Part shown: positions 18,001 to 24,000 of the stretch, piece by piece
Numbering within the stretch: position 1 is the first letter of the stretch
How the letters are laid out: every line of letters begins with the position of its first letter
Origin: Armatimonadota bacterium
GTDB lineage: Bacteria > Armatimonadota > Armatimonadia > Armatimonadales > Armatimonadaceae
DNA: 64,000 nucleotides
Reading direction: 5' to 3'
NCBI GenBank assembly: GCA_043754515.1
Contig: JAYUUO010000282.1
Coordinates: forward strand, 1 to 64,000
Position numbers: made by a program

Positions 18001-21000
18001 GTGGGGCCGTGGAAAAGGTCTGGTACGCCCTCGGCAGTGAGTTTGCGCGTAGCGGTCATGAAGTCACTCACATCTCGCGCGGATACGGCGATCTCCCAAC
18101 CATGGAAACTCACGCCGGAGTCTTCCACCACCGTGTTCCTGGCTACGATACGCCATCGTCTTTAGCGAAGTTGAAGGCACTTGACCTCCTGTATTCGATT
18201 CGCGTGTTGCGCTCGTTGCCGCGCGCCGACATCCTCGTAACCAATACGTTCTGGCTACCCGTCCTCGCGCAACACATTCAGCGGCGAGTCGGCCGCTTAT
18301 ATGTCCACGTTCAGCGTTACCCGAAAGGGCAGATGGGATTATATAGCAAGTCTGCTCGCTTACAAACGGTGTCGAAGGTAATCGCGAACGCCATCAAGGG
18401 GCAGTCTCCGAACAGTGCCGCCAGAGTCAATGTGATACCGAATCCCCTTCCGGGAAGCGCGTTCTCCGACGCTGTCATCCCGATCGCTGACCGCCCAAAA
18501 CGGATACTTTTTGTAGGAAGAATCCACCCGGAGAAGGGGATCGAACTCCTTCTCGCCGCGTTCGCCCGGCTAGTGAATGGGGACGAACACAAGAAGGATT
18601 GGCGGCTGATCGTCGTCGGCCCGTGGGAAAGTAAATTCGGCGGCGGGGGCGGGCTTTTCATGGATAAGTTACGTGAGCAGTCGCGAGTCGGGTTCGGCGA
18701 TCCCGGAAAGGTCGAATGGGTCGGGCCAGTCTTTGACGCATCCTTGCTACGGATGCACTTCGAGAATAGTCGTATTTTCGTTTACCCGTCGCTCGCGGGC
18801 AAGGGTGAGGCATCCCCGGTAGCGCCGCTCGAGGCGATGGCTTGCGGGTGTGCCACGCTAGTATCCGACCTGGAGTGCTTCCGCGATTACCTGACCCCGG
18901 ATGTCAATGGATTCGTGTTTGATCATCGCGGTGAGGGTGGAGCACTCCGCCTCGCCGTGAGACTCCTGGAATTAACCGATGCTCCCGAGACATTACAGGC
19001 TGTAGCGACACAAGGTATCATCACGGCAAGAACTTTCGCCGCCGAGACTGTATCGCGTGCTTACTTGAACGACTTCGACCGTGTGCTGGCGGAAGCGAAG
19101 CCGTGAAAGTGTCAGCACAAAAGACGTTCGTTCAAGCATCCGCTTATGCCTCGCCACATCCGCTCCGGATGCGCCTCTCTCTCCTGCTGTGGGACATCAT
19201 ATGGCAGGGGCTTTGCGCCTGGACGCCGAAGCCGATGAACCGCTGGCGACTTTTCGTCCTGAAGCGGTTCGGGGCGACCTTACACGGTACGCCTTTCGTC
19301 CACCAGCGTTCACGCATCCATATGCCGTGGAACCTTGTGATGCACGACCGGGCGTGCCTGGGCGACGGCGCGGTGGCATATTCTCAGGGCGTGATCGAAA
19401 TACACGCGCGGGCAACTGTTGCCCAGGAAGCATACCTCTGCACCGGCACTCACGACTTTTCTCAGAGGGAATTGCCGCTCATAACCGCCCCTGTGATCGT
19501 GGGCGAAGATGCGTTCGTCGGGGCGCGGGCTTTTATCATGCCGGGCGTAACGGTGGGGGCGGGCAGCATAGTCGGGGCGATGTCCGTTGTAACGAAAGAC
19601 GTCCCCCCGCAAGTGACCGTCGCGGGAAATCCGATCAGAGTCATCCGCGACACAGGCGTCGCGTGCGCTTCGGCGGGAGATGCCCGATGATCTCCGTTCT
19701 CATCCTGACCAAGAACGAGGAGATGGATCTCCCCGGATGCCTTGCCTCCGTGGCGTGGTGCGACGATATTCACGTCTTCGACTCGTTCTCGACCGATGCG
19801 ACCGCGCGTGTCGCGGAGCAAGTGGGGGCCACCGTGACCCGGCGCACTTTTGATGGCTACGCCTCGCAACGCAACGCGGCCCTGCGCGGCTTGTCGTTCC
19901 GCTATCCCTGGGTTCTGATCGTGGACGCCGACGAGCGGATACCGCCCGCGCTCGCGAGCGAAATGTGCCGCTTCGTTTCGGACGAGACTGGATTCGTGGC
20001 TGGTCGCATCCGACGGCGCGATTACCTGTCGGGGTGCCACTTGAAACATGTCCAGGCGTCGCCGCTCTACATCCGGCTGGTCCGCCCCGAGCGGGTCGCC
20101 TACGAACGCGAGGTGAACGAAGTGTTGCGCGCGGACGGCCTGGTCAAGGATTTGCGCGAGCCGTTCGACCATCACCCGTTCTCGAAAGGGCTGTCGCACT
20201 GGGTTGACAAGCACAACGTCTACTCCTCGCTCGAAGCGAAAGAGGTTCTCCGATCCCGTCAGGGCGCGAACCCGGTCTCCTTCCGGGACGCCTTTTTCGC
20301 CCGCGATTTCAGCGAACGCCGGTTCCACCAGAAAGAACTATTCTATCGTCTCCCGGCACGCCCCCTGGTAAAGTTCTTACTGCTCTACGTACTGAAACGC
20401 GGCTTCCTCGACGGCAGGGCGGGGTTTGTCTACGCGACTTTGCAGAGCATCTACGAATACATGATCGTGCTGAAGACGGCGGAGTTGGAACGGGAAACGT
20501 CGGCGGTCAGCCCCTCGCCCCCGGTGTAACGCGCCGGGTGCTACTACGCTACCGGCAGTCTCGCACTCCCGGAAGCCCGCCGCATGCTCTTCTTCCGGCG
20601 GTTCGTATTAACCGCTATTGGCAAAAACGTTCCCCGCCCGTGCCGCCCCGCGATATACTGATGGTATGGCAGTTACGATAGAAGACGCGAAGGGCGAACC
20701 CGCGACGCAGCTCGACGACATGGATCGCCGCCTCCTGAACGCGATACAGGACGATTTCCCACTAACGGAGCGGCCGTTCGCCGCGCTCGCGGAGCGGTTC
20801 GAGACGAACGAGAGCGACATCCTCTCGCGCATCACGCGGCTTAAAGAGGGGCGCATCATCCGGCAGATCTCCGCGATTTTCGACTCCCGGATGCTCGGCT
20901 ACCACGGCTCGCTCGTGGCGATGAAGACCACGCCCGAGAACGAGGCACACGCGGCGGAGGTCATCAACCGGCACCCCGGCGTTTCGCATAACTACAAGCG

Positions 21001-24000
21001 CAACCACCCGTACAACCTCTGGTTCACCCTGACCCTGCCGCCGGGGATGGATCTGCACGAGGAAATTACGGCTCTTGCGATGAAGGCGGGCGCGATAAAC
21101 ACCTGGCCCCTGCCGACGATCAAACTGCACAAGATCGGCGTCACGATGGACATGACCGGCGAGAAAGATCGGAGCGAGCGCGAGGGCGAGGACGCCCCCA
21201 AACGCACCCGAACCCGCGACTTGACGCTGACGCCCGCCGACGTACACTTGATCCGCGAGTTGCAACGTGACCTGCCCGTGATCTCCGAGCCGTTCGCGCC
21301 GTTCGCCAAGAGCCTCGGCACCAGCGTGGCGGAAGTGCTGGACGGGGCGACGCGGTTTCTGGACCAGGGCAAGATGCGCCGCTTCGCCGCCGTGCTACAT
21401 CACCGCGAGGCGGGATACGCCTACAACGCGATGGCGGTCTGGATCGTGCCCGAGGAGAACCGACCCGCGGTTGGCAAGATCATGGCTAGCTTCAAGGCGG
21501 TGTCGCACTGCTACGAGCGGCCGACGTACCCGGACTGGCCATACTCGCTGTTTACGATGTTGCACGGCCAATCCGAGGCCGATTGTATCGCGATGGCGGA
21601 GCAGATCAAATCCGTGTCGGGCGTCGGCGAGTACGCGCTATTGTACTCGACCAAGGAGTACAAAAAGATCCGCGTCCAGTATTTCACCGAGGACTACGCA
21701 CAGTTCCTGGATAGCGAAGGGCGCGCGCGGCGTCCCGGTGACGCGGCTCCAGAACTTGTCACGGTGTTTTAAGGGCGACCCTAGCGGGTAAACCATACCA
21801 GAGAACTACTGTTTGCATTAACTGGAGAATATTACCCTGATGGCACGAACGAAAAAGCACGAGAACCCTGAGGCGATTGAAACGCTTCGGCGCGACGCGA
21901 TGATGGCGCACCTGTTGGACGCATTAGACGCCGGTACCGACATCGGACATTACGGGCGGTTCGTTTTCGCGACTATCGCGCGGCACTTCCTGTCCGAGGA
22001 CGAGTTGGTGTCGGTGCTGGACCGCGACTCCGATTTCGACGAGGTTGCGGCGCGGCGGCTGGTCCACGACGTCAACCAGCGCGACTACAGCCCGCCGCGC
22101 CGCGAGAAGATCCTCGACTTCCAGTCCCGCCAGGAATTCCCGATCATCCCGAATCCAGACGACCCAGATTTCGGCAACGTCTACCGCGACTTGACCTTCC
22201 CGGACCGGGTGTATAACCACATCAGCGAGTACCACCACGAAAAGGAACATGCTCAGTAGAACGGGCCACGTCCGGGGGGTGACCGATCCCGCCTCCCGGA
22301 CACCCGCTACTTGTCCTGCTTGCTTTCCCCAACCACGACCGACCGGCGTTTCAGCCAGCCCTTCGTGGCATCCCGTACCCAGGTGTCTTTGTCTGTTTCG
22401 GTGTAGGCCATCGGCTCCTCTTTCCCGGTCTTCGGTGCCACTAATACGAACGCTATGTGTCGGTCCACGATCACGGTGCAGGTGTCCCCCGAAGTCTTGG
22501 CCTCCTTCACTGCGGTCCGCAACTCGGCGGACTTCGCCAACTGGAAAAGTTTGGTCATCGTGTCGCGGTATTTCGGTAGCAGGTCGGTCTCGGAACCGTT
22601 TACTTCCTCGTAACCGGGCGACAAAACGGACACGACCGTATCCACGTTCTTCGCCGCGTAGCCCTTGCTCTGCGTGTCGTATGCGGCCTGAATGGCCTGC
22701 TTCGTGGCGGGATCATCCTTCGCGCAACCGAGCGAACTCGCCGCGATGGCGACAGCGGCGAGAGCCGCCCAGGTAGAGTTTCTCATAAAAATGGCTTCCT
22801 TGATGGTGCACAGACAGGAATCGGCGTGCGCGACTACGAAATAGAGTTCGTCGCGGGTGGCGAAGTTCCTGCCATGCGGACGCCGAATAACCATGCCAAC
22901 AATTGCTGTACTCGCCGGGGACGGAATCGGCCCCGAAATCATCGCCGAGGCGAAAAAAATAATCGCCGCCGTTGACGAACGCTACGAACTGAACCTGACC
23001 CTCGTCGACGCGCTCGTCGGGGGCGTCGCCTACGACCGGACTGGACACCCGCTCCCGCCCGAGACGCTCGACCTGTGCCGCGCGTCGGACGCGGTGCTAC
23101 TCGGCGCGGTCGGCGGCCCGAAGTACGACGCCATCGAACCCGCCGAACTCCGCCCGGAACGCGGCGCGCTCCTGCCGCTGCGCAAGCACCTCGGACTGTT
23201 CGCTAATTTGCGCCCCGCGATTCTCACACCCGCGCTCGCGTCCTCGTCCCCACTCCGCGCGGACATTGTCGCGGGGGGGCTGGACGTGCTGGTCGTGCGC
23301 GAACTGACCGGCGGCCTGTATTTCGGGCAGCCGAAGTCGAACGACGGCGAACGCGCGGTAGACACCTGCGTCTACACCAAACCAGAAATCGTTCGTATCG
23401 CGCGAATCGCGTTCGAGGCGGCGCGCGGGCGCGGCAGAAAACTCTGCTCGGTTGATAAGGCGAACGTGCTGGAAACGTCGCGGCTGTGGCGTTCCACCGT
23501 GCATGAGGTCGCGGGCGACTACCCGGACGTCGAAGTCACTGACATGCTGGTGGACAACTGCGCGATGCAACTGGTGCGAAACCCGCGCCAGTTCGACGTA
23601 ATCGTGACCGAAAACCTGTTCGGAGACATACTCTCCGATGAGGCGTCCATGCTGTGCGGCTCGCTCGGGATGCTCCCTTCGGCGTCGCTCGGCGTGCGCA
23701 AGACCGCTACGGGCACGTTCGGGCTGTACGAGCCGTGCCACGGCTCCGCGCCCGACATAGCGGGGCGGGGAATCGCGAACCCGCTCGCCACGATCCTGTC
23801 CGTCGCGATGATGCTCCGTTATTCGTTCGGAGCGGAAGACGCCGCGGCTGCCATCGAATCGGCGGTCTCTAGGGTGCTCGACGATGGTTTGAGGACGACG
23901 GACATCGCCGCGCCGGGCGAGGCGACTGTCTCGACAGTGACCATGGGAAACGCGGTGGTGGACGCGCTCGGAAGCGCGGGCGAAACACTTGCGCGGGACT

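Follow-up and report, generated by a model that had tools for sequence, protein, structure and literature searches.

An aldo-keto reductase, probably helped by a DUF1802 protein, as candidate for the missing step of a siroheme-based heme b route

Introduction

Two reviews, in the excerpts consulted, describe three routes to heme b, of which the one through siroheme invariably requires AhbC. This radical SAM enzyme is sensitive to oxygen, its mechanism has not been established, and it has never been studied in purified form (PMC7242693, PMC10114771). The excerpted accounts of Haloferax likewise leave open how coproheme is made aerobically (PMC5746218, PMC8305020). A soluble, non-radical replacement for AhbC would define a new variant of this route and provide a tractable enzyme for its least understood step. 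Here we examine a window of Armatimonadota DNA (the whole 64,000-nucleotide stretch analysed) for which a genome-wide survey's note had drawn attention to a gap in heme b formation.

Results

Of the heme-pathway genes of the source genome (G000), the window holds AhbAB alone, and the rest are located on other contigs. The gene (20666..21772, + strand, as are all of its parts) encodes a 368-aa AhbA-AhbB fusion of the canonical type. Its AhbA half (residues 20-163, 20723..21154) scores 243.6 bits on NF040708, with a cut-off of 140, and its AhbB half (residues 195-339, 21248..21682) scores 242.3 bits on NF040707, with a cut-off of 125, so that both NCBIfam cut-offs are passed. Both halves contain the HxYxR motif described for siroheme decarboxylases in an excerpt of PMC4145669, where His98B, Tyr100B and Arg102B are catalytic in AhbB. 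The first motif (H108, Y110, R112; 20987..21001) and the second (H281, Y283, R285; 21506..21520), which matches the catalytic set of AhbB, are each invariant across 34 aligned homologues. The reading frame, scores and motifs thus bear out the fused AhbAB that the survey's note had reported (as g04571), and the protein is predicted to be a siroheme decarboxylase giving 12,18-didecarboxysiroheme. The note's second AhbAB clade was also recovered: most relatives in the class carry a divergent form, about 23% identical to the canonical type and below the NCBIfam cut-offs (49 and 80 bits), in which HxYxR is kept in the B half only.

Elsewhere in G000, a bin of 313 contigs that is 92.7% complete, we found HemB, HemL, a CobA-HemD fusion (C229), SirC (C213), two CbiX matches (C61 and C146) and a ChdC family match (C191), so that SUMT, precorrin-2 dehydrogenase and sirohydrochlorin chelatase are all present. 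Searches of G000 with URO-D and with ferrochelatase PF00762 gave no match, nor did six-frame tblastn (E<1e-3) with HemE, HemY and CpfC from HemE-type relatives; the UroD, CgoX and CpfC set of the coproporphyrin-dependent pathway is absent from G000. The AhbC model reached at most 59 bits in G000 against a cut-off of 650, and a search for NirJ, the radical SAM protein of the heme d1 pathway, yielded no AhbC/NirJ-like protein. The survey's list of enzymes present (HemB, HemL, HemD, CysG parts, ChdC) and absent (UroD, HemH/CpfC, AhbC) therefore stands. Of its heme users, cytochrome oxidase and KatG were recovered as COX1-like and KatG-like motif matches, and G000 also encodes 29 CxxCH proteins and a siroheme sulfite/nitrite reductase (C228).

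The ChdC of G000 falls short of the NCBIfam HemQ cut-off (NF042928, 133.8 against 235), and because of this we say only that it works like ChdC. It aligns to the solved structures 6xub and 9mhq (E 4e-25), its best solved match is a ChdC, and the alignment matches the catalytic Tyr and His positions of Corynebacterium (actinobacterial) ChdC. Of the residues concerned, Y135 and W183 appear in the titles of the structure entries. From this alignment, it looks like a standard actinobacterial-type ChdC.

The gap extends across the class. AhbAB occurs without HemE or AhbC in 34 of 47 class genomes, including all five single-contig ones, so that the absences are not due to an assembly gap; eight have HemE and no AhbAB, and three have AhbC. 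The contrast within the class goes back to roughly two independent switches to HemE, and relatedness raises every count. None of the eight HemE genomes carries AhbAB or CbiX, as the survey had noted for four HemE-bearing genomes, or either of the two candidates introduced below, and their heme genes form hemB-hemE-hemY and hemL-chdC-cpfC clusters. One genome, G006, has no HemE and has retained AhbAB, both CbiX genes and the candidate reductase; in three congeners HemE is present and all of the retained genes are missing. Ferrochelatase was found in none of the three gap-type relatives examined. The same set also occurs in a second phylum, consistent with the survey's claim for single-contig relatives and other phyla, and we conclude that the missing step from didecarboxysiroheme to coproheme is real in two phyla.

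Could an AhbC or HemE have been overlooked, either through the incompleteness of the fragmented G000 bin or as a divergent radical SAM enzyme? The C84 protein, probably the survey's g01592, is a radical SAM enzyme with no assigned family; it was rejected as the missing enzyme, since it lies under every cut-off (AhbD 55 of 500, NirJ 43 of 515, 24 bits on the AhbC model), whereas genuine AhbC-like proteins score 390-700 bits where found. The survey's claim that AhbD is lacking is upheld for G000 by the C84 score and holds class-wide only by proxy, through the AhbC model, on which the AhbD-like neighbours in G044-46 score 113-145 bits and the other 44 of 47 class genomes stay at or below 85 bits. 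Because five single-contig relatives and a 0.92-Mb genome of circular size lack these enzymes too, an overlooked enzyme is hardly credible, and the closed genomes have already gone far to refute it.

The survey had found no candidate enzyme, a statement now superseded by two gene families that track the gap. The first is an aldo-keto reductase (AKR; C302:11638-12630 in G000), whose clade is present in 33 of 34 class gap genomes and in none of the eight HemE genomes. Its orthologues are 58-81% identical (E<=1e-114), with the next paralogues at E>=1e-44. A PF00248 match, a TIM barrel and an intact Asp-Tyr-Lys-His tetrad (D52/Y57/K82/H130) place it in the AKR superfamily, and the clade has its own invariant residues (N131, G163-P164, E194, H218, H238, R242, W252). 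No NCBIfam cut-off is reached (best 95 of 550), and a search of plasmids at E<=1e-60 returned none. Among 131 genomes of the second phylum, the AKR occurs in eight, each with AhbAB. Of the 35 AhbAB genomes there (36 before we left out G082, whose PF17805 match is a 92-aa Lrp domain), 26 have AhbC only, seven the AKR only, one both and one neither; AKR and AhbC are thus near-complementary, and one of the seven, G098, also has HemE. AhbC and the AKR occur together in four genomes (G044-46 and G056).

Gene neighbourhoods show a similar association. A heme-pathway gene is present at 28 of 80 metagenome AKR loci (AhbAB at 14, ChdC at 14, CbiX at 8), and HemE, HemY, CpfC and AhbC at none of the 80; the other 52 have no heme gene, and 27 of the 80 are shorter than 5 kb. 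For rough comparison, 2.5% of the 4160 genes of G000 have a heme gene no more than 8 kb away, as does one of ten other AKRs. The loci with heme genes show six or more gene orders, some with abutting start and stop codons and one reading HemA-AhbAB-AKR-ChdC, and are spread over 13 separate groups of the AKR tree. In G000 itself no heme gene lies near the AKR or the DUF1802 gene.

That the AKR is so often directly beside ChdC (14 of 80 loci) is also what one would expect if ChdC with peroxide, or oxygen at the bound iron, removed the acetates of a siroheme-derived substrate, with the AKR re-reducing the iron or clearing a two-carbon aldehyde and DUF1802 a bystander. AKRs commonly reduce aldehydes, the AKR is missing from three gap genomes, and siroheme and the AhbAB product are oxygen-sensitive according to an excerpt of PMC4145669. 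However, the ChdC of G000 appears standard, the gap is shared by two quite different ChdC types (NF042928-like in G000; NF008913 in G048, passed with 255 against a cut-off of 253), and in the 131 genomes the AKR never occurs without AhbAB, beside which it is found as often as beside ChdC. We consider this explanation unlikely. A role for the AKR as precorrin-2 dehydrogenase was rejected, because all but one of the 47 class genomes have SirC and because AhbC-type genomes with no AKR lack SirC as well.

The second family is DUF1802, a protein of ASCH fold (C36:46025-46639 in G000), identified by its profile and its proximity to the AKR. It is present in 32 of 34 class gap genomes (absent from G006 and G017), so that every one of the 34 has at least one of the two candidates, and all three AKR-less gap genomes (G015, G050, G173) carry it. 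Neither of two AhbC-type genomes tested has it. Of 35 class genomes compared, 20 have DUF1802 no more than 4 kb from the AKR, as do 11 of 80 metagenome loci. It also occurs in two control genomes, those of Synechococcus and Deinococcus, where URO-D is matched and AhbAB is not. Stand-alone copies share invariant K20, W22, R39, K40, H65, R133, R148, C167 and W170. No solved sequence relative was found, Atlas returning DUF1802 clusters only; the structural model resembles 5guq (Z 9.0, rmsd 3.7, 145 aligned), 6kir (Z 8.6, rmsd 3.5, 128 aligned) and 9kyf (Z 6.6, rmsd 3.2, 99 aligned). The ASCH fold is mostly nucleic-acid-binding, which counts against a part in this route.

The survey had counted two CbiX/SirB chelatases. 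Both matches were found, although they are probably one split enzyme: all 32 C61-type halves examined retain HGS and PxFLHxGxH, with the two metal-binding His of a class II chelatase within one domain, while the second His motif is missing from each of 19 four-cysteine C146-type halves. The survey had proposed either a novel enzyme or an AhbAB of wider activity. In the latter case, AhbAB would strip all four acetates from unmethylated uroporphyrinogen or iron-uroporphyrin, the CbiX pair would act as a uro-/coproporphyrin ferrochelatase and the AKR as a ring oxidase. Small CbiX-type chelatases do take uroporphyrins in vitro, but CbiXS is reported inactive on coproporphyrin (both from an excerpt of PMC11568245); in the fused CbiX of G044-46 the catalytic domain lies at the C-terminal end, as in CpfC, and AhbAB chemistry resembles that of UroD in the excerpt of PMC4145669. 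SirC is missing from five of five second-phylum genomes tested, but also from the AhbC-type G113 and G056. Moreover, the methyltransferase, fused to HemD in these genomes, has intact N-terminal motifs in the genome of 0.92 Mb, which lacks a sulfite reductase, and both AhbAB clades would need the same gain. We thus find a wider AhbAB quite improbable. The gap itself is upheld, and of the survey's two options a novel enzyme is favoured, because the gap occurs with canonical and divergent AhbAB alike, because divergent AhbAB also works beside AhbC (with an AhbD-like gene in G044-46 and in many second-phylum genomes), and because AKR and DUF1802 track the gap.

The 0.92-Mb genome, read whole, retains HemA/B/C/L, CobA-HemD, CbiX, AhbAB, AKR, DUF1802, ChdC and cytochrome oxidase, and contains no HemE, HemY, CpfC, AhbC or siroheme reductase. 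Its six or seven radical SAM motif proteins are, by eye, of LipA, MiaB, HemW, Mqn and KamA types. This retention, in the absence of a siroheme reductase, is difficult to explain if there were no complete pathway, with heme or coproheme being imported, AhbAB being either a relic or an Lrp-like regulator that senses heme, and the association with the AKR being due to chance. AhbAB is indeed Lrp-like, some AhbABs bind heme (excerpt of PMC4145669), and the siroheme reductase of G000 could alone explain its SUMT, SirC and CbiX. Yet the catalytic motifs of AhbAB are invariant, AhbAB is lost exactly where the HemE operon occurs, and HemA, AhbAB, AKR and ChdC are joined in operons, making import very improbable.

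A comparison of G140 with G000 gave 419 reciprocal best hits, which were screened for other candidates; 107 were removed (63 long, 19 basic, 17 membrane, 8 short); of the 312 left, 296 were Pfam-scanned and 16 named by eye. Beyond AKR and DUF1802, the non-housekeeping remainder comprised DUF58, DUF374, a bifunctional-nuclease domain, HAD, carbon-nitrogen hydrolases, metallo-hydrolases and one protein with no family. Because the gene caller was crude, predicting 4170 genes in G000 and 703 in G140, some genes escaped it, and AhbAB and ChdC are absent from the reciprocal hits. Neighbours of AhbAB at 30 class loci and 80 mostly Chthoniobacterales-labelled loci included no heme gene and no candidate, and class neighbours of ChdC, CbiX and CobA-HemD gave no candidate; in one family the ChdC neighbourhood reads thrC-chdC-moaD-NIL. 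DR2241 was rejected for the class (0/5: G000, G001, G020, G021, G044).

Discussion

Our favoured explanation, which we hold probable, is that heme b is made via siroheme with no radical SAM enzyme, an AKR, probably helped by DUF1802, serving at the missing step. By homology, HemA, HemL, HemB, HemC and the CobA-HemD fusion would lead to precorrin-2, SirC would oxidise it, and the split CbiX, with its catalytic half on C61, would insert iron to give siroheme. The window AhbAB would then take off the C12 and C18 carboxyls, the AKR, with or without DUF1802, the ring A and B acetates (elsewhere the job of AhbC) to give coproheme, and ChdC with peroxide would convert this to heme b. We infer the acetate removal from profile and neighbourhood, a genomic association.

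The conversion of didecarboxysiroheme to coproheme is formally a loss of two acetic acids, and for this reason NADP(H) could be a transient hydride carrier. Speculatively, it would oxidise C3 and C8, the C2 and C7 side chains would leave as acetate or glycolate, and the ring would aromatise; DUF1802 may hold the tetrapyrrole or perform the cleavage half. Within this explanation, we lean slightly towards the AKR as the catalyst; DUF1802 as the catalyst with the AKR as accessory reductase is a lesser possibility, and an equal need for both is a little more doubtful. To our knowledge, no AKR cleaves a C-C bond on a tetrapyrrole, and our literature search found no paper on an AKR in a heme route and no tetrapyrrole role for this clade.

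We are evenly divided on whether several phyla have here a fourth, oxygen-compatible heme b route. In it, the cleavage of two C-C bonds in didecarboxysiroheme would fall to an NADP(H)-dependent AKR, with or without ASCH-fold DUF1802, and would involve no radical SAM chemistry. If so, the question of aerobic coproheme supply raised in PMC5746218 would be answered, pathway calls for Armatimonadota- and Verrucomicrobiota-type genomes would change, many lineages scored as broken in heme synthesis would be prototrophs, and the AKR or DUF1802 family would gain its first tetrapyrrole reaction.

Known systems resemble parts of this arrangement. Among enzymes, AKR families 11 and 14 (IolS 1pyf, GSP69 1pz1, AKR11C1 1ynp, YghZ) share the TIM barrel and tetrad of the candidate AKR, which is only 22-28% identical to any solved AKR and has its own invariant residue set. 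The DUF1802 model is alike in fold to ASCH/PUA proteins at 8-12% identity (Zymomonas ASCH 5guq, CXorf40A 6kir and the E. coli amidohydrolase YqfB 9kyf), and YqfB exemplifies this fold as an enzyme. Among pathways, the coproporphyrin-dependent one (UroD, CgoX, CpfC, ChdC), used by the eight HemE-type relatives, shares the final ChdC with G000, which lacks UroD, CgoX/HemY and CpfC. The AHB pathway of Desulfovibrio and Methanosarcina is like that of G000 in its CobA-HemD fusion, SirC, CbiX-type chelatase and an AhbAB with both HxYxR motifs. It differs in having AhbC and AhbD, whereas G000 has neither, ends in ChdC and has AhbA fused to AhbB, with AKR and DUF1802 tracking the gap. The Haloferax volcanii hybrid (AhbA/B and AhbC, then PitA/ChdC in air and AhbD without) shares, in the excerpts of PMC5746218 and PMC8305020, a siroheme route that ends in ChdC with no UroD, CgoX or CpfC. 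However, Haloferax has an annotated AhbC, HVO_1121, and gives a match to the AhbC model at E<=1e-30, and the gap genomes have none.

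A siroheme decarboxylase gene and a scattered heme pathway

The window carries a fused siroheme decarboxylase gene, AhbA plus AhbB (ahbAB; 20666-21772, + strand), whose 368-aa product passes both siroheme decarboxylase model cut-offs, the AhbA model matching residues 20-163 and the AhbB model residues 195-339. Both HxYxR motifs show no variation across 34 aligned homologues, the nearest named of which are labelled Armatimonadetes or Capsulimonadales; PMC4145669 names this motif for siroheme decarboxylase and finds Arg102B to be required. Around it in the window lie a cluster of glycosyltransferases, leuB and a gene for a 139-aa protein, none of them heme-related. 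The upstream polysaccharide cluster (11365-20529, + strand; glycosyltransferases, an acyltransferase and a WcaF-like acetyltransferase) bears no relation to heme, and the 139-aa ORF immediately 3' of ahbAB (21840-22259, + strand) has a weak PriL primase-subunit match (E 7.7e-5) and no Pfam family. This canonical AhbAB occurs in 4 of 47 class genomes, the source genome included; the divergent AhbAB clade of most class relatives is ~23% identical to it and scores under the NCBIfam cut-offs.

Elsewhere in the source genome we found HemB, HemL, a CobA-HemD fusion (contig C229), SirC followed by HemA (C213), two CbiX genes, and a ChdC-family gene (C191) that aligns best with a Corynebacterium coproheme decarboxylase and scores below the NCBIfam cut-off. 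A Cys-rich 90-aa ORF that overlaps the chdC stop (L001:1197-1466) looks ferredoxin-like by eye; it has no Pfam match, and none was seen at the loci of 29 relatives. In most of family f2 (L096-L124; 21 of 30 loci), chdC lies within a thrC-like, moaD/thiS-like and NIL-domain cluster, a sulfur-carrier-type context.

The genome-wide survey's note had proposed a heme b route without HemE, ferrochelatase or AhbC, and these absences hold in the source genome. URO-D and ferrochelatase were not found, a six-frame search with relatives' HemE, HemY and CpfC gave no match, and the AhbC model reached 59 bits against a cut-off of 650. Of sixteen proteins bearing CxxxCxxC, two were judged by eye not to be radical SAM proteins, and an unassigned radical SAM protein on C84 fell below every model cut-off tried. 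Heme demand is evident from COX1-like and KatG-like motifs, in line with the cytochrome oxidase and KatG named by the survey, and from 29 CxxCH proteins. A siroheme reductase gene is also present, so SUMT, SirC and CbiX are by themselves no proof for heme in this genome.

The gap across the class

Among the 47 class genomes, each at least 90% complete, AhbAB and CbiX occur in 37 each, and ChdC, SUMT and SirC in 46 each. True HemE (E<1e-80) is confined to eight, four further PF01208 carriers having distant paralogues only, and an AhbC-like protein (425-430 bits) to three, each with an AhbD-like gene alongside. AhbAB without HemE or AhbC is found in 34 genomes, and the survey's finding that single-contig relatives share this set is borne out by G020, G021, G038, G040 and G042. 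All eight HemE genomes have hemE, hemY, cpfC and chdC clusters and have lost AhbAB and CbiX, a mutual exclusion that the survey had also noticed. Of the remaining genomes, G010 (93%, 210 contigs) has neither set, and in G032 (90%, 570 contigs) the AhbAB match alone is missing. The URO-D family is greatly expanded in G044 (26 paralogues) and G045 (23), none of them true HemE.

The two CbiX genes, earlier counted as two chelatases, look different on closer comparison. Both metal-binding His motifs are kept in 32 of 32 copies of the type on C61, and the second is absent in 19 of 19 copies of the type on C146 (L033:1369-1839), all 19 of which have four conserved Cys, one close to the N-terminus (HGSxLC) and three in a tail (C-x5-CP-x6-CP), that are likely an Fe-S site of a non-catalytic half. 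The two genes are mostly adjacent, and in G044-46 they form a single fused gene with the catalytic half last. From these patterns we infer that the two genes encode a single split enzyme, and the idea of a spare chelatase was therefore dropped. A ~3500-aa protein with a signal-peptide-like start adjoins the catalytic CbiX gene (L270; C61:29783-40288).

An aldo-keto reductase tracks the gap

The product of AhbAB is 12,18-didecarboxysiroheme, and its conversion to coproheme is formally a loss of two acetic acids. ChdC acts on coproheme and requires peroxide (PMC7242693). Something would have to remove the ring A and B acetates. The survey had found no candidate enzyme among neighbouring genes; we found two that track the gap by profile and neighbourhood, of which the best would be an aldo-keto reductase clade (AKR; C302:11638-12630 in the source genome) and the second a DUF1802 protein (C36:46025-46639).

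AKR orthologues occur in 37 of 47 class genomes, including 33 of the 34 gap genomes (AhbAB present, neither HemE nor AhbC), and are missing from G015 and from each of the nine genomes that have neither AhbAB nor CbiX. G006 has AhbAB, the CbiX pair and AKR and no HemE; the reverse holds for its congeners G007-9, which carry HemE and lack all three. The contrast across the class comes down to about two independent switches.

We also compared a second phylum, in which five starting genomes were found via loci labelled Verrucomicrobiae or uncultured bacterium. All five have CbiX and ChdC; none has URO-D, and the AhbC model gave at most 67 bits. In four of the five, AKR and CbiX are divergently arranged, and this reductase has a single strong match in the source genome, on C302. 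Among 131 evenly drawn genomes of this phylum, AKR occurs in 8, AhbAB in 36 (35 without G082) and AhbC-like proteins of at least 390 bits in 28. The 35 AhbAB genomes divide into 26 with AhbC only, 7 with AKR only, 1 with both and 1 with neither (Fisher p = 9e-6, an overstatement because kin are not independent). No AKR was found outside AhbAB genomes among the 131; G128 has AhbC without an AhbAB match, and G098, one of the seven AKR-only genomes, carries HemE as well. In all, three gap genomes lack AKR (G015, G050 and G173).

Neighbourhoods point the same way. Among the best 80 of 527 confirmed metagenome AKR loci, 28 have a heme-pathway gene and the majority show none; a rough control is that 2.5% of source-genome genes lie within 8 kb of a heme gene, its heme genes being scattered. 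The neighbours are AhbAB (14), ChdC (14), CbiX (8) and DR2241 (4), with siroheme reductase 3' of AhbAB in five loci, and HemE, HemY, CpfC and AhbC were near none of the 80. Among the gene orders are AKR-AhbAB-reductase, AKR-AhbAB-ChdC, HemA-AhbAB-AKR-ChdC and ChdC-AKR with AhbAB divergent; in several, the stop codon of one gene abuts the start codon of the next. The heme-linked loci form 13 separate groups inside one AKR clade, which has a support of 0.885 against eight source-genome paralogues. Its catalytic tetrad is complete, with clade-specific His, Arg and Trp residues, and the predicted structure is a barrel of the ordinary AKR kind, with 22-28% identity to solved AKRs.

DUF1802 is the commonest non-heme AKR neighbour, level with a one-lineage penicillin-binding protein (11 each of the best 80 of 527 loci). 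It occurs in 36 of 47 class genomes, being missing from the same nine without AhbAB and CbiX plus G006 and G017, and lies within 4 kb of AKR in 20 of 35 class genomes compared. It is present in G015, G050 and G173, so each gap genome examined holds at least one of the two candidates; in the second phylum, where five genomes were searched and three read by sequence, it is absent from the AhbC-type genomes G113 and G174. The fold of the predicted model (pLDDT 88.9) is ASCH/PUA-like (Z 9.0 and 8.6), and Lys, Arg, His, Cys and Trp residues are invariant in the family. Counting against DUF1802 are family matches in Synechococcus and Deinococcus and a link to heme genes mostly by way of AKR.

A minimal gap genome

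G140, a second-phylum genome of 915,884 bases that was read whole, has HemA, HemB, HemC, HemL, CobA-HemD, CbiX, DR2241, AhbAB, AKR, ChdC, HemW, cytochrome oxidase and DUF1802, and none of HemE, HemY, CpfC, AhbC, SirC and siroheme reductase. Heme is the sole evident use of siroheme here. The methyltransferase, fused to the needed HemD, could be a passenger; its motifs are intact.

SirC scored above cut-off in none of five AhbAB-using second-phylum genomes tested (G047, G056, G113, G140 and G143), AhbC- and AKR-type alike. DR2241 (PF18069 with the 4Fe-4S domain PF18009) lies beside CbiX in several cases (L256:6501-7166, L362:10177-10833). Precorrin-2 oxidation is a second gap in this phylum, with DR2241 as a candidate, G113, G056 and G143 being outside the DR2241 search.

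Discussion

From gene identities (by homology), absences, profiles and neighbourhoods, we conclude that the pathway gap is real and widespread, with AKR as a well-supported candidate and DUF1802 as a second. We speculate that an NADP(H) enzyme might drive acetate loss by transient hydride transfer at C3 and C8; we know of no chemical precedent, and the chemistry, if demonstrated, would be new.

The available parts of PMC13564367, PMC5746218, PMC4145669, PMC8305020, PMC10991733, PMC11568245, PMC7242693 and PMC10114771 describe no AhbC-free siroheme route. In searches with most subscription journals outside their scope, no aldo-keto or keto reductase term appeared among the matches listed, and DUF1802 occurred in one unrelated paper; further searches yielded nothing but reviews. 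Such genomes may already figure as mixed or incomplete in existing reviews and pathway surveys.

On TIGR04347, a haloarchaeal 'pseudo-SAM/SPASM' model, the AhbC-like protein of G046 reaches 393 bits. Should the AhbC annotated in haloarchaea be the TIGR04347 pseudo-enzyme, this gap may extend to halophiles.

AhbC/AhbD occur together with AKR/ChdC in G044-46 and G056, which would hold both an anaerobic and an aerobic version. Haloferax offers a parallel, with anaerobic and aerobic versions of the last heme step (PMC5746218).
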